42,839 nucleotides of DNA from a bacterium (GTDB lineage Bacteria > SM23-31 > JAUVVT01), in contig JAUWXV010000003.1 of assembly GCA_030616165.1 (NCBI GenBank), positions 1 through 42,839 of the forward strand, written 5' to 3'. Positions 5,959-21,316 of this stretch are shown here, one piece after another (position 1 is the first letter of the stretch; every line of letters begins with the position of its first letter). The notes beneath the pieces were generated by a model that did not search any database, had not been told where the DNA came from, and saw nothing but the letters and a program-made list of their open reading frames with translations. The position numbers and the translations under genes were made by a program.

Positions 5959-8900
5959 TTATTTTAACAAAATCATCTTTTTGGTCTGAACAAAACCATC
6001 GGCTTTAAACTGATATAGATAAATTCCTGATGATACTTTTATCCCAAGATTATTAGTTCCGTCCCACATTATTTGATAATTCCCCGGTTCTTGTTCTTGG
6101 TTAATTAAGGTCTTAATTTCTTGCCCAAGAATATTGAATATTTTTAGTGTAACCTTTGTTATTTTTGGAAGTTGATATTCTATTTTCGTATATGGATTAA
6201 ATGGATTGGGATAGTTCTGATATAAGACAAACTCTTTTGGCAGCATAGCTGTTACCTGAAGAACCTCATATTGTTTGATAATACCGGAAATATTAACCGA
6301 TTCCAACTTGTAATAATAGATTTTTCCAGGTTCAACATTATTGTCTTCAAACGTATATTTCATATCACCACTGCTTGGTATCAATTTGGAATTTATTTTC
6401 TCAAAGCCGTAATCGGGTGATAGACTTCGGTAAATATTGAATCCGGCATTGCCGTTTTCACTGACTGTTTCCCAATCAAGTTGTATTGCACCGACAATTG
6501 ATTTTCCCGTAAATACAGCCAATTGAACATCAACAGGAACATCTAAATAAAATTTTCCTGTTTCGGACCAGGGACTGTTAAATATTCCGTCATTGCTTCT
6601 TACCCGCCAATAATATTGTGTATAATTTTCCAATTCTGTCTGTGGTGCATAACTTGTTGTATTTTGATCTTCCGTGATTCCTGTTTTGTATACTGTAAGG
6701 TTGAGAAAAGTCGAATCGTAAGCAACAGCAAACGTATAGGTCATGGGCTGTCTGGTGCTGACGGAATTTTGTACAATCAATGTCGGTCGGAAAGTACTGC
6801 TGATTACTGCATCCTTGGACGGGGATGAAATTACGGGAGCAGTGGCAACGGAATCTGCATTTGGCTTAACTAAAAATGGCTCAGAACGTCCACTTTCATT
6901 AGGAGGATAAACATTATCCATAGAAGATATATAATAAGCATAGGAAGTATCATTCTTTACGCTCCTATCATAATAGTATGTATCCTTGATTTGAGTGGCA
7001 ATGGATATATAGTCTTCTTCTAATCCCTTACTTCTGTAAATATTATAACCGTTCAAATCTCCCGCCGCATTCGGAACTTCTGCCCATTGAATATATACCT
7101 CATTATTTCCGCCGACAGCAAATGAAATTTCCGGCACTTCAGGAGGAGTTGTGTCAGGTGATGCAGAGGTTTTAAACAAGTAAGTATCTGGTGCATAGGT
7201 TACATTATCGCTCTTATCAACAGACCCTGCTGTATATATATAAGTAACATCAGGTTCAAGGTTGGTTAAGGTAATTTCATGTTCGGTAACATCTTTTGCA
7301 CTCCCGACATTATTCTCCCATTCATTTTCATAATAGTTCGTAACTTTCCTTAGAGCATTTCGTTTTTGGAATGAAGCGCTGTCACTGAACATCACAAAAC
7401 TGTCGGATAATTCGTCTGTTATCCATTGGATAGTGGCAGTATGGTTAGTTATTGAGACTACCCTTGGACCATCTATAATTTGAGGCGGGATTAAATCCTT
7501 TATTGCATAGGTCCGAAAATATTTATCGGCGCTGAATGTTGGACCATTATCCTCAAGGTCAACGGATGCTACACGAAAATAGTAAATTGTGTCCGGCAGT
7601 AAATTCGTGAGTGTTATCTGATGAAAAGTCACGTCCTCAGCAAGAATTCGGATTTCGGGGGGACCTGAGATGGTATCCAATATGCCGAATGTCGAATCTA
7701 AAGTAAATTCAATATAGGTGTCACTCGGTTCATCGGTTTCCCAGAGAATAGTTGCCTGATCGTCAGTGATAGATGTAACTACAGGACCGGCAATTATCTG
7801 GGGTGGGATAATATCGGTTTCAGCATCAGTCGTCACGGTAGAATTTAGACTTAATGAAGGACCATATTGATTGATATCCGTTGAACTCACTTGATAATTA
7901 TAGGTAGTTGAAGGTTCCAGGTTCGTCAGAGTTACACTATGTTCTACTACATTGCTTGCCGATTGCTTTGATAGTGTATAATCCTCAGATATTCCATATT
8001 CAACAATTGAATTACTCTGCTCATCAGTAAACCATTCTATGGTAACATTGGTAGCACTCTTGTTAGTAACAGTGGGCCCAGAAATTATTATAGGTGCTAC
8101 ATCGTCCCGGATGCTGCTTGTTGTGAATCTTCCGGTACCACCTGGAGGCTGAGCAGTACGTGCTTCTTCTAATGTTCTGTATAGCGAGCCCACATACTTG
8201 GTCGGGAATGTAATCACATTATTGCTTCTGTCGGATGATGTTATAATGAAGATATATTCCTCTCCCGGTTGAAGGTTTGTTATTACAATGTTGTGTTTCC
8301 TCGACAAATCGGCGCTGCCGTACTTTTCATAACGGGCACCGGCTTCAATAGAATCGGCAATTCCATAGTAGATGAAACTATTTGAGGGTTCGTCAGTTAC
8401 CCATTCAAATGATGCCGACCTCTCTGTTGTAAAAACTATTGGACCTTCCACTATAAACGGTTTTGTTGTATCCGCGGCAACAGGAGTTAGGAGTTTGTTT
8501 ATTATTCTTGTTTTTTCATTTTTATTTCCGTCGATATCTGTAGAATTCACCACATAATAGTATTTCTCACCCGGTATTAAGTTGGTCAGATTCACAGAGT
8601 GATCAATAGTGAGCTCTGAATTACCTTCACTATAAGTCATACTATCTTTTCTAAATCTGTATACTACAAATCCATCAGATGGCTCATCGGTAGTCCATTC
8701 GATTGTAACGGAAGATAATATCTTTCCCAACGAACTCTCAGATGAAATAAGGTTTGTTACTATAGGTCCCCTGATAACCTTGGGTTTTTTCCTGTCTTTT
8801 TCCTTTTTCGTGCGGAAACTTATCGGTGTATCCCTTGTTTCTATGACATTGCCGTTAAGGTCAATGGAACGAACGTATGCAAAATATTCAGTTGCCGGCA

Positions 8901-11900
8901 AGAGATTAGTAAGTATGAATTTGTGATTTCTGACATTTTCTTCATTCGAAACTGGTCCCTCATTGTATGTCGTGTCGGTCCCAAATTCAACAATAGTGTT
9001 TGATTGTTTATTGGTTTTCCATTTAATCAATGCCGAATTCTCAGTAGTATGCACCACAATCGGTCCCTCAATTATATCCGGCGGCAATGTATCGGGAACT
9101 GCCTTGGTATAAAATGCATATAATCTGTCCCTTGTATTGACTTCATTCCTGCTTATATCTTGGGACATTACTGACACATAATAGAGTGTATTCGGCTCGA
9201 GATTTGTCAGGCTCACCCTTCCCACTTTTATAAGGTCTGCACTTCCGGTCTTGTTTCCTAAACTTGTTGAATCAGTGCCAAACTCCACAAAACTTGATGT
9301 CCTTTCATCCGTTTCCCATACTATAGTAGCGCTGTTGTGTGTAACATTCATTGCAATAGGACCTTTGAGAATAACAGGGGGTATAGTGTCAGGTGCTGCA
9401 CGGGTAATAAATTGCTGTATTGCGCCGGTAAAAGAATTGCCATTTAAATCAATTGAACGGGCTCGATACCAATAACGGGTTGAACTTGAAAGATTTGTCA
9501 GTAAGAGCGAATGTATAGTAACTTTTTCCGCATCTTCTACTGTCTGGTCAAGATTCGTTGAATCGGTACCAAACTCGATATAACTATCCGAAAGTTCATC
9601 GGTCTCCCATACAATTGTTACTGTATTATGAGTCCGGTTAACGGCATTGGGTCTCCTTGTCCATCGAGGTTTAATTGTATCCGGTTCGGCTTTTGTTTTT
9701 AACTTGAAAAAGTAACTGAATTTATAATTGCCGCTTGGGTCCTCAGACTTTACTTTGTAATAATAAATCGTACTGGATGAAAGATTTGTCAGAGATATGG
9801 AATGAAACGTGATGTCTTCCTCATGCCCAACTAACTCTGTTGAAGATGTATCTGTGCCAAAATATACAAAACCATCACTCACTTCATCCGTAACCCATAC
9901 AATAGTTGCTGTGTTGTAAGTGCGGTTTTTGACTATAGGTCCATTTAAGATAACCGGCGGTTTTTTATCTTCTTCTTTTTTTGTTTTGAATGAAAAATCT
10001 TCGCTTTGATACTTATTTCCGGTAATATCCGTGGAGATTATCTTATAGTGATATTCAGTGTCCGGAGTAAGGTTTGTCAAAGGTATTATGTGCTCCTTTG
10101 AATATTTTTCCGTACCCGTGATGTCCCCATAGGCTTCCGTTTCCCCAAACTCCACATACCCGTCTGCTAATTCGTCTGTTTTCCAGCGAATTGCAACCTT
10201 TACATCCGTTTTTCCAATCTCTTCCGGACCCGCAGCAATTATAGGTGCAACAGTATCAGGTGACGTTAATGTCTTAAATCCCCATAATCTGCTTTCAACT
10301 GTGTTTCCGCTGGCATCCGTGCTCCTGACTCTGAAATAATACAAAGTATCCGCAGTGAGATTGGTAAGAATTATCTTATGTTCTTTGACATCTGATGCAT
10401 CTTCTTCTGACTCCTGAAGTGTTGTATCCAGCCCGAATTTAACATAACTGTCACTCGGTTCATCAGTTACCCATTCAATTGTCGCAGAATTGTGTGTTTT
10501 CGCTGCTACAATAGCCCGGGCAAGAATTATCGGGGGCTTCTCATCTACATCAATCCTTGTCATAAAAGTAAAATCACCACTGATAAACGTATTCCCGGAT
10601 AGGTCTGTAGAGGAAAAACTGTAGTGATATTCGGTTCCCGGAATCAAGTTTGTTAATCGAACGAGATGGGTTAATTTATGTTCAGACTTTTCCTCAACCA
10701 TATCATAAGTTTCAGTCGTCCCATATTCCACGCGACTGTCAGAGGGTTCATCAGTCTTCCACTTTATTGTTGCCTGTGTCTTTGTCCTGCCAATAACAAT
10801 CGGCCCCGTCAACACAACCGGGGGAAGTGTATCCGGCGCAGCCCTTGTTATGAATTCCTTTATCTCACTTGATACTGTATCCCTGCTTTGGTCTATTGAT
10901 AGAACCCTGTAAAAGTATGTGGTTAAAGAGGACAGGTTAGTCAGAGTAATGTTGTGTTCCTTTACATTGGAAACATCTACCTCGATTTGTCCAATCTCCA
11001 AAGTAGTGTCATATTCAACAATGCTGTTAGACAATTTATTGGTTATCCATTTAATTGTTGCAGAATTATGAGTACGGCTGACAACAATAGGTCCGTTCGT
11101 AATAATCGGTTTGATAACAATAACCTTCAACTTGGTCTTAAATGTGCCTGTCACTTCACTCGATATATTATTAGACCCATCCTCAGACTTAATTCTGTAA
11201 ACGTACTTTGTATCACTTACAAGCCCTGTCAGCATAACATAATGATTCTTGACAAGGTCTCCACTGCTGATGGTCGTTATCACTGTATCACTTTCAATAT
11301 TAAATGAGACTACACTGGTTGCCAGTTCATCTGTCTTCCAGAGGATAACAGCACTATTTACAGTAATCCCGGTAACAACTGGACCTTCTATGATGACAGG
11401 GGGAGTTATATCTGGTGCTGATTTTGTACGGAACCGACGCAGTGGTCCCCAAAGTACATTGCCGTTGACATCAACTGAACGAATCATATAGTAATAAAAT
11501 GTCTCGGTTTGAAGTCCTGTTAATTTTACATAATGTAACTTAACACGCTCCGTCAAAACAACAGGTTCCGATTCTTTTACCTTTGCGCTGTCAATTGCAT
11601 AATATACCTCACTCGTGGAATTTTCATCAGTCTTCCATTCAATTACTGCATAATCATGACCTTTCCCGGAAAGAACAGAACTTGAAACAAGTCTTGGCGG
11701 TGTAACATCAGCCTCTACTAATGTCTTAAATGAAAATCTCCTTAAAATTGTCTTGTTACCATCAGCATCTTTGGACCCTATATTATACATATATCGCCTT
11801 CCGGCAAAAAGTCCTGTAACCGGAACGGCATGCTCTAACACGAGTTCGGGATTGCTGAAAATAAACTTCTGCGTGTCAGCCGCAGCCAATACAGAAGCCG

Positions 11901-14040
11901 CAGTTATCATTGTTAGTTGTACATAACTGTCAGATAGTTCATCGGTCTTCCACACTATCTTTGCACTGTTCTGGGTAATTTCAACGGCAGCAGGACCCTC
12001 GGTTACAAAAGGTGGTATCGTGTCTTTCTCGGCTTTTGTAGTAAAGGTACGGTCTATTCCAATTAGTGCATTATCACTGCGGTCTGTTGAACGAATGCGG
12101 TAATGATATTCAGTTTTCGGCTCTAAGTCTGGCAAAAAGATTGAATGATATCTTACTAACGTGGAATCGTAAACAGGGTGTTCATAATCAGTTGTTAAGC
12201 CAAATTCCACATAACTGTCCGATATCTCATTCGTTACCCATATAATCCTTGCGCTTATATCAGTAATACCGCCTGCAACAGGTGGGTTAACTAATATAGG
12301 TGCAATTGTGTCTTTTACTGCTTTTGTACGAAAACCGCCCCACAATGTATCACTTGTATTCCCGAATGCATCTATCGAATAAATTCTATATTCATATCCT
12401 GTATCGTATGATAAATTAAACAGTGGTACAATATGCTTCAATGTTAATATTTCTAAATTAATCTCCTTATAAGGTTCATCGCTTCCTGACACCCGGTAAC
12501 CTAAATCGCTTGTAGCCGGTTCATCCGTATGCCATATTACAGCAGCGCTATTCATCCTGATACCTGCAGCAAAAGGTCCCTCTACAATCACTGGCGGAAT
12601 AGTATCTTTCTCTGCTGCTGTTATAAATGTCAAATTCCTGCTGTAAACAGGTCCGTTACCTGCAGAATCAATAATCGATACCCTGTAATTATACTCAGTT
12701 TCGGGTATTAAACTATCAAGAGTAACACTATGCAATTTCGTTAAGGTAGTATCCTGAACGGAATCCGTATACGCAGTTGTCGTGCCGTAATAAACTATGC
12801 CTCTTGTCAATTCATTCGTCGTCCATCCAATAGTGGCTGCATCCTTCGTAACGCTCACATCACGAGGCCTTAAAACATAAACAGGCGGCATAATATCCGT
12901 TCCGGGAAGTATTATAGTAAATCTATATATCTTTGAAATGTGAACTTTTCCATCAGGATTCATTACCTGTACGTCGTATGTCCCGACAGGTAAAGAACCT
13001 GCAGGAATAATAATCTTTATAGGCAAAACTATCACAGTAAACTCAACCTTTACCACATTAAAAGGTGCTGTACCAATCGTTATCTTAAGCCCAGGTTGAA
13101 AATTTTTACCGGAAATCCGTACCTCTATATCCTCATTAGAAAATCCTCTTATAGGTGAAATACCGGTTATAATAGGGTAAAGTTCAATTGCTACAATCAT
13201 AGGTCTGCTGTAAAGAGTTAACTCGGTGGCAATAGTATTGGTTATCTGACAGGTATATATTCCAGAAGATGCTGCAGTTGAAGATGCAATCGTATAAGTA
13301 CTGCTGTTTGCGTCAGAAATAGGTGTACCGTTCCTGAACCATTGATACTGATTGGCTGTTCCACCAACTGATACAGACAATGTAATACTTGTCCCGGGAG
13401 CAGCAGAATGGACTTTCTCCTCACCAACCACGTCCTGCGGTGAATATATAAATCCTTCAAAATGGCCGATATTGGGCTCAATATCTTCAAAAGTTAATTG
13501 ATTATCGTCCACCTTTAAACTATCTAACGATTCTAAAGAAGATAGAACAGGTAAATCGGTAAACTGATTTTTATGAAGATATAAATAATATAAATTAATC
13601 AAATTGCCTATCTCAGTAGGGATACTGCCCGTAAGTTGATTATCATTAAGACGTAGACTTTTCAGATTAGCAAGATTCCCAATTTCTTTGGGTATTTCTC
13701 CCGATAAATTATTATTATTCAAGTCAATACTTATTACATATCCATTAGTATCCACTTGTACCCCGTTCCATGTTCCTACAGGTTCATCACTCAACCAGTT
13801 AGTATTATTACTCCAATTTGACCCGCCAAGGGCATTATACAACTGAACAAGAGTTAATGAATCTGGACTTTCCGTCTGTGCCTGAGTTGAGTGTGCAGTC
13901 GCCATCAGCAATGTGCATATAAATAATAAACATGTTATACATTTAACCGAATCTTGTGCTGCTTTTCTCATATTCTGTTTAAATAAATTACTACTCTTCA
14001 AACGAGATAATGCAGACAAAATAATTTTTAAAGTTTTCAT
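5959..14040 (-). CDS. Giant secreted protein: short LRR module, Ig/IPT domains, about 19 tandem FN3-like repeats, further FN3 domains and a C-terminal FlgD-Ig/T9SS-like domain
   Basis: Plant-receptor-type LRR (LNNNNLSGEIPKEIGNLANLKSLRLNDNQLTGSIP); about 100-aa repeats D..PP.I..GP......A.I.W.TDE.S...V.FG...H...L.NL...T.Y.Y...S.D..GN; C-terminal LYQNYPNPFNP...TKKMILLK. The start may be the downstream Met (MRKAAQ). Confidence 0.85.
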   Translation of the reverse strand: MKTLKIILSALSRLKSSNLFKQNMRKAAQDSVKCITCLLFICTLLMATAHSTQAQTESPDSLTLVQLYNALGGSNWSNNTNWLSDEPVGTWNGVQVDTNGYVISIDLNNNNLSGEIPKEIGNLANLKSLRLNDNQLTGSIPTEIGNLINLYYLYLHKNQFTDLPVLSSLESLDSLKVDDNQLTFEDIEPNIGHFEGFIYSPQDVVGEEKVHSAAPGTSITLSVSVGGTANQYQWFRNGTPISDANSSTYTIASSTAASSGIYTCQITNTIATELTLYSRPMIVAIELYPIITGISPIRGFSNEDIEVRISGKNFQPGLKITIGTAPFNVVKVEFTVIVLPIKIIIPAGSLPVGTYDVQVMNPDGKVHISKIYRFTIILPGTDIMPPVYVLRPRDVSVTKDAATIGWTTNELTRGIVYYGTTTAYTDSVQDTTLTKLHSVTLDSLIPETEYNYRVSIIDSAGNGPVYSRNLTFITAAEKDTIPPVIVEGPFAAGIRMNSAAVIWHTDEPATSDLGYRVSGSDEPYKEINLEILTLKHIVPLFNLSYDTGYEYRIYSIDAFGNTSDTLWGGFRTKAVKDTIAPILVNPPVAGGITDISARIIWVTNEISDSYVEFGLTTDYEHPVYDSTLVRYHSIFLPDLEPKTEYHYRIRSTDRSDNALIGIDRTFTTKAEKDTIPPFVTEGPAAVEITQNSAKIVWKTDELSDSYVQLTMITAASVLAAADTQKFIFSNPELVLEHAVPVTGLFAGRRYMYNIGSKDADGNKTILRRFSFKTLVEADVTPPRLVSSSVLSGKGHDYAVIEWKTDENSTSEVYYAIDSAKVKESEPVVLTERVKLHYVKLTGLQTETFYYYMIRSVDVNGNVLWGPLRRFRTKSAPDITPPVIIEGPVVTGITVNSAVILWKTDELATSVVSFNIESDTVITTISSGDLVKNHYVMLTGLVSDTKYVYRIKSEDGSNNISSEVTGTFKTKLKVIVIKPIITNGPIVVSRTHNSATIKWITNKLSNSIVEYDTTLEIGQIEVDVSNVKEHNITLTNLSSLTTYFYRVLSIDQSRDTVSSEIKEFITRAAPDTLPPVVLTGPIVIGRTKTQATIKWKTDEPSDSRVEYGTTETYDMVEEKSEHKLTHLVRLTNLIPGTEYHYSFSSTDLSGNTFISGDFTFMTRIDVDEKPPIILARAIVAAKTHNSATIEWVTDEPSDSYVKFGLDTTLQESEEDASDVKEHKIILTNLTADTLYYFRVRSTDASGNTVESRLWGFKTLTSPDTVAPIIAAGPEEIGKTDVKVAIRWKTDELADGYVEFGETEAYGDITGTEKYSKEHIIPLTNLTPDTEYHYKIISTDITGNKYQSEDFSFKTKKEEDKKPPVILNGPIVKNRTYNTATIVWVTDEVSDGFVYFGTDTSSTELVGHEEDITFHSISLTNLSSSTIYYYKVKSEDPSGNYKFSYFFKLKTKAEPDTIKPRWTRRPNAVNRTHNTVTIVWETDELSDSYIEFGTDSTNLDQTVEDAEKVTIHSLLLTNLSSSTRYWYRARSIDLNGNSFTGAIQQFITRAAPDTIPPVILKGPIAMNVTHNSATIVWETDERTSSFVEFGTDSTSLGNKTGSADLIKVGRVSLTNLEPNTLYYVSVMSQDISRNEVNTRDRLYAFYTKAVPDTLPPDIIEGPIVVHTTENSALIKWKTNKQSNTIVEFGTDTTYNEGPVSNEENVRNHKFILTNLLPATEYFAYVRSIDLNGNVIETRDTPISFRTKKEKDRKKPKVIRGPIVTNLISSESSLGKILSSVTIEWTTDEPSDGFVVYRFRKDSMTYSEGNSELTIDHSVNLTNLIPGEKYYYVVNSTDIDGNKNEKTRIINKLLTPVAADTTKPFIVEGPIVFTTERSASFEWVTDEPSNSFIYYGIADSIEAGARYEKYGSADLSRKHNIVITNLQPGEEYIFIITSSDRSNNVITFPTKYVGSLYRTLEEARTAQPPGGTGRFTTSSIRDDVAPIIISGPTVTNKSATNVTIEWFTDEQSNSIVEYGISEDYTLSKQSASNVVEHSVTLTNLEPSTTYNYQVSSTDINQYGPSLSLNSTVTTDAETDIIPPQIIAGPVVTSITDDQATILWETDEPSDTYIEFTLDSTFGILDTISGPPEIRILAEDVTFHQITLTNLLPDTIYYFRVASVDLEDNGPTFSADKYFRTYAIKDLIPPQIIDGPRVVSITNHTATIQWITDELSDSFVMFSDSASFQKRNALRKVTNYYENEWENNVGSAKDVTEHEITLTNLEPDVTYIYTAGSVDKSDNVTYAPDTYLFKTSASPDTTPPEVPEISFAVGGNNEVYIQWAEVPNAAGDLNGYNIYRSKGLEEDYISIATQIKDTYYYDRSVKNDTSYAYYISSMDNVYPPNESGRSEPFLVKPNADSVATAPVISSPSKDAVISSTFRPTLIVQNSVSTRQPMTYTFAVAYDSTFLNLTVYKTGITEDQNTTSYAPQTELENYTQYYWRVRSNDGIFNSPWSETGKFYLDVPVDVQLAVFTGKSIVGAIQLDWETVSENGNAGFNIYRSLSPDYGFEKINSKLIPSSGDMKYTFEDNNVEPGKIYYYKLESVNISGIIKQYEVLQVTAMLPKEFVLYQNYPNPFNPYTKIEYQLPKITKVTLKIFNILGQEIKTLINQEQEPGNYQIMWDGTNNLGIKVSSGIYLYQFKADGFVQTKKMILLK

Positions 14041-14795
14041 CTTTTATTTTCCTAATTAAATTTGATTTAATGTTCAAAAATAAGCTTCTTCGGACTTTTT
14101 ATTTGCACAAAAAAGTCAAGTAAATTTCAATTTATATTAAATCGGTAATTTTATAGCAACTTTTAACAAATAAAATTTTTTTTAATTTAATAAGTAAAGT
14201 GTTATAAGTCAAGTATTTAAAAATTACGGCGGTTTCATTTAATAATATTGGTAAAAGAATTAAATGATATATTCCAGAATGAACATAGCCTGTATTTTCT
14301 AATAATTATTTGCACATTGAGAAATAAAAAATAATACTTTACTTTTATTTCTTATAAAATTATATTATAATATAATTTTAGTTCTTACAACTGTTATCAT
14401 TTCGTACACTTCTTAACGACCAGGTAAATTTTCCCTGTCATCTTGTCCCGATATTTTTAGACCAGGCTCTACAACATAATTATCTCGAATAATAGGAAGG
14501 TATGACGCCGGCGTTTAATAAATTTGTAAAACTTAATATTAAATCCAGGTATTTTTCTATTTGTTAAAGTAAAAATAAGTTACTTGACTTTAAAAACTAT
14601 ATGTAAATGTTATTATTGAATTAATACTATTTTAATTTTTAATGTTAACCGTCAAATTTTTATGTTAGTTAAAAGTTAGTCGTGTACAAAAGTTAGTAGA
14701 AAAAATATATTAATATTTAATACATGTAAGTTTTATAATATTAATAAAATAGTTCGGTGATTTTATTTTACACTTACCTCAACAAGGAGGTTTAC

Positions 14796-15440
14796 ATGAA
14801 TATTAAAGATTACAAAGAAATACATAAAAATGATAAGCAAAACAGACGTAGGTTTTTGAAAAAACTTGTGAAGTGTACCGTTTTTATTCCCCCAATAATT
14901 TATCAATTGAAAACTTCGAAGACTTCTCATGCTGCTTTACCACCTAAAGGATTAGACGAAATAAAGGGGCAAGAATTTTACGATGAGATTCTGAAAACGG
15001 CTTATGAAAGGATGGTTGGTTATACTTGAGCTGAAGCAAGCTTGCAAGGTTTGCAAGAAATGTGGGACTTACCAAAAAAATGGTACTCCTGGGCTACTGC
15101 GGGATATGGTGGGGCTATTGGATCAGGGCAAACGACGTGCGGTCTTTTGATTGGCAGTAGTATAGCTATTGGCTTTCGCTATGGTCAGGGCAAAGATGGT
15201 ATTCCAGGGAAATTTAAGGACGAAAGAACCAGAGCCATTCGAGCTGTAGGTCTGTTGTATGAGGACTTTTTAAAAGAATTCGGCAGCACGCATTGCCAGA
15301 CGCTAATCGGCATTGATTGGTCCAAACCGGAAGACAGAAAAAGATATAAAAATGATAAAATTGGTCAAACAAAATGTGGTGTTTTTTTAAATTTTGTGAT
15401 GAACAGATTTATCGACCTGACAAAAGAAGGAAAAATATAA
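14796..15440 (+). CDS. C-GCAxxG-C-C family redox selenoprotein with Tat-like signal; Sec at UGA 15027-15029 (codon 78), 214 aa
   Basis: AAGGAGG RBS before ATG 14796. ORFs 14757..15029 and 15042..15440 are in the same frame, joined as YT-UGA-AEASLQG, where family members have C-A-E-A. Downstream GYGGAIG..TTCGLLIG...FGSTHC...KC. SECIS-like hairpin follows the UGA. Confidence 0.85.
15027..15057 (+). promoter_or_regulatory. Bacterial SECIS-like element
   Basis: TGA, then 11 nt (GCTGAAGCAAG), then the perfect hairpin CTTGCAA-GGT-TTGCAAG (15041-15057) with GGU at the apex. Confidence 0.8.
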
Positions 15441-15523
15441 GAATTACGTATATTGAACGTTTTAACATTGTTGATATTTATATTTATGTCAAATTATTAA
15501 TCCTTTAATAAGGAGATTTTGTC

Positions 15524-16816
15524 ATGAATACTAATGAACAAAAATTCGATGTGATAGTCGTTGGAACTGGGGCAGGTGGCGCAACTGTAGCAAGAGAATT
15601 ATCTCGGAAAAAAAAGAAAGTGCTTATGCTTGAATGGGGAGATTATGTACCATTAACAGGAAGCTTCAAGCATTGTTTTAAATCACTTTTATTCCCTGGC
15701 AGAGGATTACTATTTACAAATCAGATGCTTGGTTTACTCAGAGGAATAGATACTGGTGGAAGTACGGTCTTTTCCTGTGCAACATTTTTTCCTGTACCTT
15801 TTGAGATGCTTAAATCTTATGGTATAGATATTACTGCAGAAGTGGAAGAGCAAAAAAAAGAACTCCCAATCGCACCTCTTAAAGATGAAATGATTGGTCC
15901 CATGTCAAAAAGGATCATGGAAAGTGCTCAGGATCTTGGTTATAACTGGCAAAAACTGGACAAATGTATGTACCAGGACAAATGGAAACCTGAATACAAA
16001 TTTAGTCATTACGGTGATCCTCATGGTGTAAAGTGGAGTGCAAGAATGTACGTCGAGGAAGCTATAGCTAATGAAGCATCACTTATAAACGGAGCAAAAG
16101 TTAAGAAAGTAATAATAGAAAAAAAGACTGCAATTGGAGTTGAATATAAAAAAGACGGAAAGAAACTCAAGGTTTTCGCACCAAAGATTATTATTTCCGC
16201 AGGTGGAATCGGTTCTCCAGTGATACTCAGAGCAAGCGGTATCAAAGAGGCCGGTTATAATTTCTTTTTTGATCCTGTTATTGTAGTTCGTGGTATAGTA
16301 AAAGACATTGATGTCCCATCTCATGAGATTCCTATGGCCGCTGGTATACACATGGAAGATGAGGGTTATATTATGACCGACATGGCATTTCCGGCTGCAA
16401 TAACTGCCATATCTGCTTTTCAGGTTTTTAGGTTTGATAAAATGCTGTCACGTCGAAAAACACTCCAGATAATGATTAAAGCCAAGGACGCCCTATATGG
16501 GAAACTTACAGATAATGGTGGAGTTAGAAAAAACCTTAAAAGAGATGACAAACAAAAACTGATGAGGGGATTTGAAAGAGCAAAGAAAATTCTGAAAAAT
16601 GCTGGTGCAAAAAGCATTTTTAAGACTTGGTATTTTGCCGGTCATCCTGGTGGTACTGTTAAGGTTGGTGAACTTGTAGATTCAAATCTCAAAACTAAAT
16701 ATGAAAACTTATACGTATGTGACTGTTCAGTTATTCCTGAAGCTTGGGGATTGCCACCAGTAGCTACAATTATTGGTCTTGGTAAGCGGCTTTCAAAGCA
16801 TCTTACTAGTGAATAA
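15524..16816 (+). CDS. GMC (glucose-methanol-choline) family FAD-dependent oxidoreductase
   Basis: FDVIVVGTGAGG dinucleotide-binding motif, GGST, IISAGGIGSPVILRASG, HPGGTVKVG, ENLYVCDCSVIP...PPVATI. AAGGAG RBS. Confidence 0.88.
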   Translation: MNTNEQKFDVIVVGTGAGGATVARELSRKKKKVLMLEWGDYVPLTGSFKHCFKSLLFPGRGLLFTNQMLGLLRGIDTGGSTVFSCATFFPVPFEMLKSYGIDITAEVEEQKKELPIAPLKDEMIGPMSKRIMESAQDLGYNWQKLDKCMYQDKWKPEYKFSHYGDPHGVKWSARMYVEEAIANEASLINGAKVKKVIIEKKTAIGVEYKKDGKKLKVFAPKIIISAGGIGSPVILRASGIKEAGYNFFFDPVIVVRGIVKDIDVPSHEIPMAAGIHMEDEGYIMTDMAFPAAITAISAFQVFRFDKMLSRRKTLQIMIKAKDALYGKLTDNGGVRKNLKRDDKQKLMRGFERAKKILKNAGAKSIFKTWYFAGHPGGTVKVGELVDSNLKTKYENLYVCDCSVIPEAWGLPPVATIIGLGKRLSKHLTSE

Positions 16817-17011: not shown

Positions 17012-17596
17012 ATGAAAGAACATAATAGAAGAGTATTTTTGGGGTTATCCACAGCTGGATTATTAGCATTAGCTGGTTGTGGTAAAGAATTAGAAATTGA
17101 AAAAGGAGTAACCAAGATGGCAAGTGAAGATGCCTTTAACGGTGCCAAGAACGCATTCACCACTTTCTATGCATACTTCAACGCGGTTGCGCAGGAAATA
17201 GGCATGGAACAAGCCCTCGCCCTGTATACAAAGGTGTTTGAGGCAGGGGGCGATGCGCGGGGCAAGATGATTAAAGAGCAGGCTGGCGTTGAGGAATTAG
17301 ACGCCAAAGCAGCGGCTCTGCTGATAAAAAACCTTTCAGAAGGCACTGGCGGTAGCTTGGAAGTGATAGAGGAAAGCCCTCAAAAGGTTGTTATCAAGTT
17401 CGGAAGGTGCCCCCTTTACGAGGCAGCCCAAGTGGTGGGGATGGATGCCGAAACCATCGAGACTCTGTGCCGTGCTGGTGGTCTCAGAGCTATGGACACA
17501 ATGGTTAAACAACTCAACCCCAATCTCAGTCACCAGTTGAGGAAGTATCGGTCAGCTGCAGATGACTTCTGCGAAGAAACAATCGTGCTGGGTTAG
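17012..17596 (+). CDS. ATC-hydrolase-like (L-2-amino-thiazoline-4-carboxylate hydrolase/V4R-like) protein, copy A, with Tat-lipoprotein signal
   Basis: NRRVFLG Tat motif and LAG-C lipobox. Core has AVAQEIGMEQAL and three Cys (RCPLYEA, LCRAG, DFCEE). A second RBS plus in-frame ATG lies at 17117. Paralog of 20837..21316. Confidence 0.7.
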   Translation: MKEHNRRVFLGLSTAGLLALAGCGKELEIEKGVTKMASEDAFNGAKNAFTTFYAYFNAVAQEIGMEQALALYTKVFEAGGDARGKMIKEQAGVEELDAKAAALLIKNLSEGTGGSLEVIEESPQKVVIKFGRCPLYEAAQVVGMDAETIETLCRAGGLRAMDTMVKQLNPNLSHQLRKYRSAADDFCEETIVLG

Positions 17597-17881: not shown

Positions 17882-18511
17882 ATGAACACAAAAACTTCAT
17901 CTTTAGGTCAAAGCCGCAGGCAGTTCTTTACAAAATTTCTGCCAGCGGGGGCAATATTCTGTTTTGGATGCAGCAAGTTGCTGGCTTGTGATCAGTCAGA
18001 GGAAAAATCTATAGTTTCAACCGGACAGCACAAGTTCCTGGAAAATTCAGGAATGAGTTTTGAAGAAGTTTTTAATTTCGCTTTTAAAGAATTTTATATT
18101 CCTATTGCAAATAATCTTAAGAAAGATATTGGAAAAGACAAATTTATCGAGATGTTAAAAAAAGCCAGTTCTGAGTTTGCTGTACAAATAGGGAAAAATT
18201 TAGCTACAAGTCTTCAAAAAAATGATATCGCTGCCTTTGCTTCTTTTATGAAAGAAAATGAACTCTATAAACATATTTTGACATATGAAATTGTTGAAGA
18301 AACGGACAAGGCTTTTGAAACGAAAGTTACCGAGTGCCTTAATGCTAAGACTTTCCGCGAGGCTGATGCTTCAGATATCGGATATGCTTCCATCTGCCAT
18401 CAAGATTATGCTTTTGTTCGTGCCTTTAACCCTAAAATGAGATTGATTAAAAACAAGACTTTGATGCAGGGGCATGACTTCTGTGATCCCAGATGGGTTT
18501 TGGAAGGATAA
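17882..18511 (+). CDS. ATC-hydrolase family protein with Tat signal
   Basis: SRRQFFTK Tat motif. KVTECLNAKTF...IGYASICHQD...FNPKMRL...TLMQGHDFCD matches the family pattern. GGAGG RBS. Confidence 0.82.
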   Translation: MNTKTSSLGQSRRQFFTKFLPAGAIFCFGCSKLLACDQSEEKSIVSTGQHKFLENSGMSFEEVFNFAFKEFYIPIANNLKKDIGKDKFIEMLKKASSEFAVQIGKNLATSLQKNDIAAFASFMKENELYKHILTYEIVEETDKAFETKVTECLNAKTFREADASDIGYASICHQDYAFVRAFNPKMRLIKNKTLMQGHDFCDPRWVLEG

Positions 18512-18771: not shown

Positions 18772-18989
18772 CCATGTTCGTTTCCTGAGTAGGACTTGTC
18801 TACCTGAACTGAAGGAAGTCCTGTTTTGCTCTGATAGCGCCCGGTCTCTGCCAGTCCTCTGAATGCCGAAAGCGATGGGACATTGCTTTCATGGGATTTA
18901 TCTGAGGTGCTGTTTTCAACTGCGACTTGGCGGTCGGCAGCATCTTACCGCTCGGCGCGGCACATAATCGCAGCCGCACGCCTGAGCAG
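18772..18989. repeat. 218-bp GC-rich direct repeat, copy 1
   Basis: Colinear with 21317-21534; the last ~100 bp differ at one position. The first ~23 bp also follow copy A (17597-17619). Confidence 0.92.
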
Positions 18990-19574: not shown

Positions 19575-20501
19575 ATGAAAAAATCAACCGAAGAATTTTG
19601 TAAGATGTTCGGCGAGGATAAAGAAGCATTGGGTAAAATGGTAGAAGGCTATACCTATTTTAAATGGTTAAACTTGTACATTTATCATATGCGAAAGATT
19701 GGAACTACTTTCGCCCCCGATCCGGAAGTGACTCTCCGCTATCCCAAAGAGATAGCAACTCCTGATGCAGATGAGTTGGCACAGATGGCTGCTGCAAAAA
19801 CACTCCCCACTCTCCTTAGTGCCGAAACAAGCACTTATCATAGCAAGGTTGTCAAATTAGATGATGCCAAGAACCTGGTGACTATTAATAAAGAGATCTC
19901 GCTGACTGACCTGGAGACCATTATCCCCTATAAACACGCCCGGGACATCATCTTAAAAAACCCGGAAAATATCGCTGTACTTGACTGTTGTTGCAGGATG
20001 ACGAAAGAAAATCCATGCGAACCTTTGGATGTTTGCTTGTTTGTAGGCGAACCCTTTGTAAGTTTCATACTGGAGCATAATACGAATAATCCTCGAAAAA
20101 TTAGTCAGGGAGAAGCTGTTGAAATTTTAAAGGCTGAGGACGATAGGGGACATATACATACCGCTTGGTTCAAGGATGCTGCGGGAGACAGGTTCTATGC
20201 TATCTGCAATTGCTGTAAATGTTGTTGTGGAGCGATGCGTGCCTTTTTTAGAAATATTCCCATGATCGCTTCCTCGGGCTATGTCAGCGAGATAAGCGAA
20301 GACTGTGATGGCTGCGGAGAATGTGCTGAGTATTGCCAGTTTGGAGCAATCAGCGTCAATGATCGAGCACTGGTAAATTACGAAAAGTGCATGGGCTGTG
20401 GAGTATGTGAGTCAAAGTGTCCCATAGAGGCTATCAGTTTAAAGAGAGATCCAGCCAAGGGTGAACCTTTGGACATCAGGGCACTCAGTGAACAAGTGTG
20501 A
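19575..20501 (+). CDS. Cys-rich 4Fe-4S dicluster domain protein
   Basis: C-terminal CDGCGECAEYC and CMGCGVCESKCP ferredoxin motifs. Extra Cys clusters DCCCR...PC...VC and ICNCCKCCC. AGGAGG RBS. Confidence 0.87.
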   Translation: MKKSTEEFCKMFGEDKEALGKMVEGYTYFKWLNLYIYHMRKIGTTFAPDPEVTLRYPKEIATPDADELAQMAAAKTLPTLLSAETSTYHSKVVKLDDAKNLVTINKEISLTDLETIIPYKHARDIILKNPENIAVLDCCCRMTKENPCEPLDVCLFVGEPFVSFILEHNTNNPRKISQGEAVEILKAEDDRGHIHTAWFKDAAGDRFYAICNCCKCCCGAMRAFFRNIPMIASSGYVSEISEDCDGCGECAEYCQFGAISVNDRALVNYEKCMGCGVCESKCPIEAISLKRDPAKGEPLDIRALSEQV

Positions 20502-20836: not shown

Positions 20837-21316
20837 ATGGCAATTGAAGATACCTTTAACGGTGCCAAGAACGCACAAACCTTCTTCTATGCATACTTCA
20901 ACGCGGTTGCGGAGGAAATAGGCATGGAACGTGCCCTCGCCCTGGTTACCAAGATGGCTGAGTCAATGGGCGCTAAGACGGGCAAGATGATTAAAGAGCA
21001 GTCTGGCGTTGAGGAATTTGACGCCAAATCAGCGGCACTGCAGGTCATAAACATGGCTGAAGGCCTTGGTAACATATTGGAGGTGATAGAGGAAAGCCCT
21101 CAAAAGGTTGTGATCAAGTGCGGCAGGTGCCCCAGTTACGAGGCAGCCCAAGAGGTAGGGCTGGATGCCGAAACCATTGAGGCTGAGTGCCGTGCCAGTG
21201 CTCTCAGGGTTTTGGACACAATGGTTAAGCAACTCAATCCTAATCTCAATTACAAGTTGACGAAGTATCGGTCATCGGCAGATGACTTCTGCGAAGAAGA
21301 AATCGTGCAGGGTTAA
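20837..21316 (+). CDS. ATC-hydrolase-like protein, copy C (no signal peptide)
   Basis: High similarity to residues 36-194 of copy A with the same three Cys. AAGGAG RBS. Confidence 0.72.
   Translation: MAIEDTFNGAKNAQTFFYAYFNAVAEEIGMERALALVTKMAESMGAKTGKMIKEQSGVEEFDAKSAALQVINMAEGLGNILEVIEESPQKVVIKCGRCPSYEAAQEVGLDAETIEAECRASALRVLDTMVKQLNPNLNYKLTKYRSSADDFCEEEIVQG

Follow-up and report, generated by a model that had tools for sequence, protein, structure and literature searches.

We analysed a window of 42,839 nt, i.e., positions 1 to 42,839 of the forward strand of contig JAUWXV010000003.1 (assembly GCA_030616165.1), from a bacterium of the lineage SM23-31. Positions 14796–15440 of this window very probably form one gene, encoding a selenoprotein of 214 residues that belongs to the C-GCAxxG-C-C family and has an N-terminal extension that is probably a twin-arginine export signal. 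The gene contains a single in-frame UGA at position 15027, and we can say with high confidence that this codon is decoded as selenocysteine (Sec); actual insertion of Sec is inferred from sequence comparisons, namely from the position of the UGA in the family and from a covarying hairpin downstream of it.

According to the mechanism we propose, translation would begin at the ATG at 14796, and the hairpin at 15041–15057, whose GGU loop is 18 nt away from the UGA, would recruit SelB carrying Sec-tRNA(Sec) to UGA 15027. Sec would thereby occupy the position that is the first of four conserved cysteines in relatives, after which translation would continue to the TAA at 15438. The N-terminal ~46 residues, including the motif RRRFLK, would direct export, and the mature domain would work outside the cytoplasm. 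A preliminary description, made from the sequence alone, had proposed an exported selenoprotein of 214 residues. The selenoprotein is borne out by the single 214-residue frame, the homology, and the covariation of the selenocysteine insertion sequence (SECIS), while the twin-arginine translocation (Tat) part of the proposal draws on a motif and on the translocase genes of the genome.

One reading frame and a conserved UGA with its hairpin

The frame runs from ATG 14796 to TAA 15438–15440 and is interrupted solely by the TGA at 15027–15029, resulting in a read-through product of 214 residues (MNIKDYKEIHKNDKQNRRRFLKK...GYT-U-AEASLQGLQEMW...). Open reading frame (ORF) calling with translation table 11 yields an N-terminal ORF of 77 aa (90 aa if an upstream GTG is used) and a 132-aa ORF starting from TTG 15042, upstream of which no AGGAG-like site is found. 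The public annotation splits the gene into separate proteins of 77 and 126 aa. The earlier observations of two same-frame ORFs parted by a TGA, of a downstream ORF without its own ribosome-binding site, and of a gene missed by standard gene callers were thus all confirmed. Elsewhere in the genome (3.74 Mb, 90% complete), TGA is an ordinary stop codon, terminating 357 of 1519 open frames of at least 300 codons. The features of the gene and its neighbors are compiled in Table 1.

Table 1. Positions of the predicted selenoprotein gene, its parts, and neighboring genes in the window.
Feature	Positions	Strand	Basis or remark
Ribosome-binding site AAGGAGG	14784–14790	+	5 nt upstream of ATG 14796–14798; AAGGAGG-N5-ATG also in orthologues L088 and L089
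Predicted selenoprotein gene, complete (214 codons + TAA, single in-frame UGA)	14796–15440	+	Protein-versus-genome match 14796–15437 with 1 internal TGA
N-terminal extension, residues 1–46, putative signal peptide, probably Tat	14796–14933	+	Cleavage site judged by eye
First helix of the C-GCAxxG-C-C domain, residues ~55–77, 5' of the UGA	14958–15026	+	Aligns with the N-terminus of ~160-aa cytoplasmic forms; model helix 59–75
UGA, predicted to be decoded as selenocysteine (U78), first conserved Cys of the family	15027–15029	+	Homologue alignments, Pfam profile position
Domain 3' of the UGA, containing the second to fourth conserved Cys: C115 (TCGLLIG), C167, C194	15030–15437	+	Invariant columns; Pfam match to residues 76–201
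Putative SECIS core hairpin, 7 bp, loop GGU (15048–15050), encodes S-L-Q-G-L-Q-E	15041–15057	+	Covariation; absent in Cys forms
Short GMC-type FAD oxidoreductase, 430 aa, no signal peptide	15524–16816	+	Neighbor 83 nt downstream; context only
ATC_hydrolase-like and 4Fe-4S genes	17012–17596, 17882–18511, 20837–21316, 19575–20501	+

Membership of the read-through protein in the C-GCAxxG-C-C family, as originally claimed, was supported by the Pfam profile PF09719 (C_GCAxxG_C_C), which scored 57.6 bits (cut-off 27) and aligned residues 76–201 with profile positions 1–111. When the whole genome was searched with PF09719, the sole match began at base 15027, corresponding to profile position 3 (51.3 bits). 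A homologue search in a collection of 5.8 billion proteins provided 198 relatives out of 379 candidates, of which 21 were aligned with the query. In this alignment (A1), U78 coincides with the Cys within the conserved stretch YTCAEASLQ; of the 16 rows extending to this column, 15 have Cys. Uninterrupted forms of ~160 aa carry Cys exactly at the position of the UGA, and C115, C167, and C194 are invariant across all 22 sequences, so that the four conserved Cys positions of the family (U78, C115, C167, and C194) are all matched in the window protein. The motif at the second Cys reads C-G-L-L-I-G, with Cys and both Gly kept and Ala replaced by Leu; among six distant members, five have C-G-A-x-x-G and one (L092) has C-G-A-x-x-S. 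These six distant relatives, which stem from other genomes and share 24–31% identity, have Cys (four) or TGA (two) at the first-Cys column. The expected alignment of the UGA with a Cys in homologues was accordingly found with close homologues, distant members, and the Pfam profile alike.

To this we can add a contig scan with one genome per species, which returned 67 related loci. At the Sec/Cys column, 38 loci have TGA, 28 have TGT or TGC, and one (L087) could not be placed. Many database entries of 126–134 aa begin with MQGLQ... or MWDL... and start just past the UGA column, as expected for Sec forms that were truncated by gene callers. Two further observations concern this column. The unrelated genome G017 harbors two C-GCAxxG-C-C paralogues, L092 and L096, both with TGA at the first-Cys position. 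The metagenomic protein P0003 (216 aa), which has an RRAFL signal and retains LQGLQ, carries His at the Sec/Cys column (...ETWHAEAILQ...); this residue may point to a metal ligand at that site, or may simply reflect an artefact of translation or assembly.

Close orthologues were recovered from a metagenome scan, L088 with 77% and L089 with 75% identity. Both have the TGA, and both retain the ribosome-binding site, the start codon, the RR motif, and the hairpin. The dN/dS ratios (nonsynonymous to synonymous substitution rates) for codons 79–214 were 0.36 and 0.19 for the window gene versus the two orthologues, by which estimate the part of the gene behind the UGA is under purifying selection.

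As described earlier and confirmed by reading the sequence, a perfect hairpin of 17 nt follows exactly 11 nt past the TGA: after 15030–15040, the sequence CTTGCAA-GGT-TTGCAAG forms a 7-bp stem with a 3-nt loop. For a comparative test of UGA plus hairpin, the TGA set comprised 41 forms (the window gene, the 38 loci, and the two metagenome orthologues), with covariation counted on 38 distinct rows. The hairpin is present in 41/41 TGA forms at the same offset (columns 15–21 and 25–31), and its loops are GGN or GUU throughout. Pairing is kept in 98.1% of cells, and four of the seven pairs are altered on both sides. Double-sided changes amount to 36 cells, compared to 9.5 ± 5.4 in shuffles, and none of 500 shuffles reached 36. 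Sliding the 3' arm by 1–3 columns reduces pairing to 23–46%. In the 28 Cys forms, 46.9% of the same columns are paired, which equals their shuffles; L060 and L073, the two of bacterial origin, lack the stem as well. Stem variants include CTTGCAA-GGY-TTGCAAG, CCTGCAG-GGN-CTGCAGG, and mixed arms such as TCTGCAA/TTGCAGG. In the two Sec paralogues of G017 (29–31% identity to the window protein), the hairpin again lies 11 nt after the TGA. As pairing and covariation are kept in TGA forms and lost in Cys forms, the stem is, judged by these alignments, an RNA-level constraint tied to the UGA and not a mere by-product of the peptide LQGLQ. At the hairpin position, the peptide of the Cys forms is LQALL or LQGLL, and LQGLQ is hence not required by the fold.

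The N-terminal extension and the export route

The extension consists of a long polar n-region, the sequence R17-R18-R19-F-L-K (14844–14861), the h-region LVKCTVFIPPIIYQL, and KTSKTSHA, followed by A47. The Tat-type core N-R-R-R-F-L-K-K spans residues 16–23, where RRRFLK corresponds to the classical Tat core, and basic residues are located ahead of the putative cleavage site SHA. An extension of ~50 residues was seen in only six sequences (the window protein, P0123, L088, L089, P0002, and P0003), whereas the 38 Sec loci of the 67-locus scan encode proteins of ~160 aa without it.

Given that the gene is real, we consider export by the Tat route probable, yet with clear reservations, as the sequence features point in both directions. 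The preliminary description had called the protein Tat-type. In favor of this, R-R-x-F-L is invariant in 6/6 extended relatives at 57–87% identity although x varies (R, G, T, T, G, and A), and the genome encodes a Tat translocase, with tatC at 208.8 bits and tatA/E at 75.1 bits, both above cut-offs. Several results weigh against it. The Tat profiles PF10518 and TIGR01409 (Pfam and NCBIfam) gave no match to residues 1–55 even at E ≤ 10, whereas in the positive control the signals of two other proteins of the same genome, L100 and L101, scored 21.2 and 16.6 bits with PF10518. Furthermore, codons 1–77 evolve near-neutrally, with dN/dS of 0.89 and 0.90 against the two orthologues.

The same selenoprotein could therefore carry an extension of another kind, i.e., a signal for the general secretory pathway, a membrane anchor that is not cleaved off, or a leader under little constraint that plays no part in targeting. 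Such an extension, which would change the export step only, is in our estimate a real but less likely possibility. Besides the missing profile match and the dN/dS values, it is favored by the h-region, which differs from those in the signals of FdnG, L100, and L101, all rich in Ala/Gly/Ser, and by the AlphaFold model, in which residues 1–52 have a predicted local distance difference test (pLDDT) value below 50 and are unstructured save for one low-confidence helix. It is opposed by the invariant R-R-x-F-L, the match of RRRFLK to the Tat core ahead of a basic stretch and the putative SHA site, and the presence of tatA and tatC; in addition, the frame is open across the 77 codons in 4/4 Sec-type sequences, with differences that stay in frame.

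Beyond the extension, the AlphaFold model of the selenoprotein is all-helical, with a mean pLDDT of 67.7 and values of 70–90 for the domain. No solved relatives were found in the PDB by sequence (family profile, E ≤ 1), and Foldseek returned no PDB match at E ≤ 0.001, so that the all-helical fold gives no functional clue. Our best inference is that the mature domain is a selenol/thiol redox or metal-binding module outside the cytoplasm.

Weighing the decoding of the UGA

Compared to published consensus criteria for bacterial SECIS (bSECIS) elements, the hairpin shows a mixed picture. The legend of Fig. 2 in PMC13188914 lists a loop of 3–9 nt on an upper stem of 4–16 bp, a G in loop position 1 or 2 (often followed by G or U), a distance of 16–37 nt from the UGA to the apical loop, and a minimum free energy (MFE) of ≤ −7.5 kcal/mol. 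The window hairpin agrees with three of these four: its stem of 7 bp bears a loop of 3 nt, the first loop nucleotide is G, and the distance from the UGA to the loop is 11 + 7 = 18 nt.

The remaining one, the MFE, is borderline and belongs to a set of observations that argue against Sec decoding or against the family assignment. Thermodynamic support is weak: the 17-mer alone folds with −5.6 kcal/mol (z −2.67; 6 of 200 shuffles are equally good) and falls short of −7.5 kcal/mol, z-scores in context are close to zero (0.03 for 40 nt and −0.41 for 56 nt), and the MFE structure of the 40-nt segment (−7.8 kcal/mol) adopts a shifted register of 8 bp. The bulged U in the 5' arm of the E. coli fdhF SECIS is absent from the window hairpin. 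The split between Sec and Cys forms largely follows that between Bacteria and Archaea (38/38 TGA loci are bacterial and 26/28 Cys loci archaeal, the domain being taken from the sequence record), which in part confounds loss of the hairpin with descent. Lastly, the NCBIfam model TIGR01909 scored 33.1 bits and thus stayed under its cut-off of 47.4; this score reflects a divergent subgroup, and Pfam membership is unaffected.

Regarding the folding data, the 56-nt MFE structure (−11.7 kcal/mol) does contain the hairpin at 15041–15057. The shifted register preferred by the 40-nt segment was rejected, as it shows no covariation and its columns are paired in 71.4% of cells versus 70.9% in shuffles. 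An Rfam search in E-value mode (14500–15700) returned chance matches to small nucleolar RNAs, microRNAs, and similar families, and no SECIS family. The window contains nine perfect hairpins with 7 bp and a 3-nt loop, compared to 4.8 ± 2.1 in block shuffles, and a TGA followed after 11 nt by such a hairpin is expected ~0.19 times per window before any demands on frame, loop letters, or homology. Within the window alone, a chance origin of the arrangement is thus not negligible; it is by the comparative sequence data that the hairpin is shown to exceed chance. Two other candidates with TGA plus hairpin in the window were discarded: the one at 18860 translates into junk, and the other, at 21258, does not share the frame of the ORF at 20837–21316.

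The preliminary description had also likened the hairpin to the geometry of E. coli fdhF. Spacing and loop position agree with the K-12 DNA, where the TGA is likewise followed by 11 nt and a 17-mer with GGT at nt 22–24 from the U of the UGA, and both loops begin with GG. The comparison does not extend to the stem. The fdhF element has a bulged U (position 3 or 4 of the 17-mer), six pairs, and a 4-nt loop (GGUC), and its 40 nt form one long stem back towards the UGA (−13.1 kcal/mol), whereas the window has a perfect 7-bp stem, the loop GGU, and no conserved lower stem. The bulged U, together with the G and U of the loop, contacts SelB in fdhF. The window hairpin is hence alike in geometry, not a copy.

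It is conceivable that the UGA is read through by near-cognate decoding, with Cys or Trp inserted in place of Sec, and that the hairpin is a by-product of the peptide LQGLQ. The stem does consist of two Leu-Gln codon pairs, and as TTGCAA and CTGCAG are self-reverse-complementary, the peptide repeat by itself creates a stem; the unremarkable folding energy fits this as well. We nevertheless regard this explanation as very improbable. Cys forms encode LQALL or LQGLL without a stem, and LQGLQ goes with TGA. The arms covary synonymously (CTG..CAG, TTG..CAA, and mixed CTGCAA/TTGCAG), with not a single C-A or A-C mismatch at the synonymous sites of pairs 16–30 and 21–25. Groups encoding ILQVLRE or VLQVMQE/VLRVMQE keep the stem with other residues; the ILQVLRE subgroup, for example, retains pairing with different codons (CCTTCAA-GTT-TTGAGGG).

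A complete Sec machinery in the genome speaks against near-cognate decoding, too. Contig C100 carries selA (488.5 bits), selB (352.9 bits), selD (362 bits), and a tRNA-Sec (70.3 bits), all above cut-offs, and the tRNA has the anticodon TCA (ARAGORN: tRNA-SeC). The Sec machinery that had been implied for this lineage was thus found together on one contig. The genes are arranged on a single strand in the order selA-selB-selD-tRNA-Sec (G000:C100:1-4619 + C84:3-332). The 5' end of selA lies on C84, and because selA is divided between the ends of both contigs, C84 and C100 probably abut. The selD gene itself contains a TGA in frame (KCAG-U-AGK), and the hairpin behind it has the loop GGA. In total, 10 of 12 genomes of the class have selA above the cut-off, and Sec use is therefore the rule in this lineage.

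Finally, that the TGA is a true stop between two small genes, a recent nonsense allele in a pseudogene, or an assembly or sequencing error, as the split public annotation and the two table-11 ORFs might suggest, is the least credible of the explanations considered, because the TGA recurs at the same codon in the 38 of 67 loci, the two close orthologues, and the two distant paralogues, because the stretch upstream of it (residues ~55–77) has its homologous counterpart at the N-terminus of Cys forms that are not interrupted, and because the downstream ORF lacks both a ribosome-binding site and the first Cys of the family. Residues 53–77 are identical to L088 at 19 of 25 positions. Contigs of four runs from three studies span 15024–15050, and none of the 40 differences listed (of 148) is located at 15027–15029. 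Indels just upstream of the TGA in other runs are multiples of three and stay in frame. A 77-aa database protein with 87% identity terminates at the same place as the upstream ORF of the window. The suspicion of an error or a recent nonsense allele was thus dispelled by the TGA being kept in L088 and L089 and by this fragment ending there.

Genomic setting, related systems, and implications

Sec forms of the family were known before, as the preliminary description had stated. Zhang & Gladyshev 2007 (PMC1976440) describe a 'putative redox protein' family, for which they report three Sec-containing members from the Olavius delta-1 symbiont and predict a SECIS, and the reviews PMC9312934 (2022) and PMC13188914 (2026) list a 'C-GCAxxG-C-C family protein' among the selenoprotein families, the latter crediting form 1 to Zhang & Gladyshev 2007 and form 2 to the 2008 GOS (Global Ocean Sampling) study. 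L083, from an Olavius-associated Delta 1 genome, has TGA at the same column as the window gene. The terms 'twin-arginine', 'periplasm', and 'signal peptide' do not occur in PMC13188914, and no description of an N-terminally extended subgroup was found in the portions of the literature searched.

The window protein shares with the Sec C-GCAxxG-C-C proteins (PF09719/TIGR01909) the domain, the predicted Sec at the first conserved Cys as in the 38 bacterial loci, and a SECIS position that is common family-wide, and differs from them in its RRxFL extension of ~50 residues and its score below the TIGR01909 cut-off. The window gene is therefore an additional member of a known selenoprotein family, set apart by a rare, probably Tat-type extension. 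The top NCBIfam model is NF045501 (HUGP/GUXX-star fusion selenoprotein; 73.5 bits, residues 70–211 on profile positions 15–157), whose N-terminal half is a related C-GCAxxG-C-C domain. Membership in NF045501 was rejected, as its cut-off is 325 bits and the window protein lacks the part past position 157 of the 236-position model. A twin-arginine N-terminus, an in-frame UGA, and a downstream hairpin are also combined in the alpha subunit of FdnG-type formate dehydrogenases, which have a homologue in this genome; FdnG, however, is a molybdopterin enzyme of ~1000 residues with known chemistry, in contrast to the small all-helical domain of the window protein.

Further selenoprotein candidates were obtained by a crude genome scan for TGA, hairpin, and open frames, which returned 25 candidates, nine of which were looked at, seven of these against NCBIfam. 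Of the seven, five look real: an FdnG type, SelD, a ResA/AhpC-like protein (ASW-U-PVC) with a tail for the type IX secretion system (T9SS), and two Tat-signal paralogues. The FdnG-type formate dehydrogenase (TIGR01553, 1340.7 bits) has the Tat signal MKISRRSFLG... and a TGA followed by a hairpin. The T9SS-tailed protein, L103 (G000:C84:604-2655, +; 684 aa), combines an AhpC/TSA-redoxin domain with LVIVD repeats and carries a T9SS sorting domain at its C-terminus. Its TGA lies within the redox motif and is followed by a hairpin, its gene adjoins the 5' end of selA on C84, and by its sequence L103 appears to be a selenoprotein with type IX secretion. The Tat-signal paralogues L100 (G000:C2:1906-3483, +) and L101 (G000:C223:3384-5000, −) have ~520 aa each, with an in-frame TGA 53 codons ahead of the stop (...EMM-U-RTK...) and, 13 nt past the TGA, a 7-bp hairpin with the loop AGTT that covaries between the two. 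They gave no NCBIfam match at E ≤ 1e-5, and Pfam provides a sub-threshold TAT_signal match only. Among their homologues (324 relatives found), Cys occupies the TGA column in 7/7 aligned full-length forms, and 5/5 aligned shorter entries (from KSB1, Planctomycetota, and others) stop exactly before it. Based on these alignments, L100 and L101 are candidates for a selenoprotein family that curated models do not yet cover.

Regarding its distribution, an orthologue of the window gene was not found by protein-versus-genome search in 11 other genomes of the class, and among 40 other genomes searched with the protein, five had distant matches only (26–33% identity). For two proteins of the genome, the closest relatives with a name come from metagenome-assembled genomes of Latescibacterota and KSB1, respectively. 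L088 (1–2679) is flanked by GC-richer, unrelated genes, i.e., an ORF resembling a left-handed beta-helix upstream and a 191-aa ORF downstream. The unrelated flanks of L088, together with the absence from the 11 genomes of the class, suggest that the selenoprotein gene may move horizontally.

Upstream of the gene, the minus strand of the window (5959–14040) contains a frame of 2693 aa with many repeats of ~90 residues and a T9SS-type C-terminal tail (...YQNYPNPFNP...); it ends 750 nt ahead of the selenoprotein gene, with an AT-rich spacer in between. Downstream, the gene is followed by the one for an oxidoreductase of the glucose-methanol-choline (GMC) type, dependent on flavin adenine dinucleotide (FAD), and 3' of the latter lie, on the same strand, three paralogous small genes similar to ATC_hydrolase (PF14196) and a gene with a 4Fe-4S ferredoxin domain, which may form a functional cluster with the selenoprotein gene. 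No terminator-like site is found between the selenoprotein and GMC genes. Matches to relatives of the GMC protein (~420–450 aa) begin at residues 2–10, and the GMC protein has no signal. Our analysis of neighbors at 69 loci (L021–L089, i.e., the 67 loci plus L088 and L089) revealed no informative shared neighbor; DUF6125 was present in 10 and a short-chain dehydrogenase/reductase (SDR) in 12, and a cluster of neighbors from 22 loci without Pfam match may consist of shadow ORFs.

Small Tat-signal subunits of membrane-bound FAD dehydrogenases carry their partner across the membrane by hitch-hiking. By analogy, the extended Sec forms might constitute a periplasmic branch of a family that is otherwise cytoplasmic, and the Tat-signal selenoprotein of the window might act as escort and redox partner of the GMC flavoprotein. 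Gene order, the lack of an intervening terminator, and the lack of a signal on the GMC protein and its relatives are in line with this idea. The adjacency is not kept in L088, the only orthologue with downstream sequence, which weighs on it, and we consider it improbable. If it were true, the pair would be a new selenoprotein–flavoprotein oxidoreductase outside the cytoplasm.

For the annotation, a single selenoprotein of 214 aa replaces the records of 77 and 126 aa, and many entries of 126–134 aa are likely to be truncated in the same way. The gene further provides a worked example of a SECIS within a coding sequence, in which position and pairing are kept while the peptide changes, and in which the stem is lost when Cys replaces Sec; this example could be used to train selenoprotein gene finders. 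For the family, a secreted-looking subgroup is added. The picture of Sec decoding itself is unchanged, and Sec use is common in the class.

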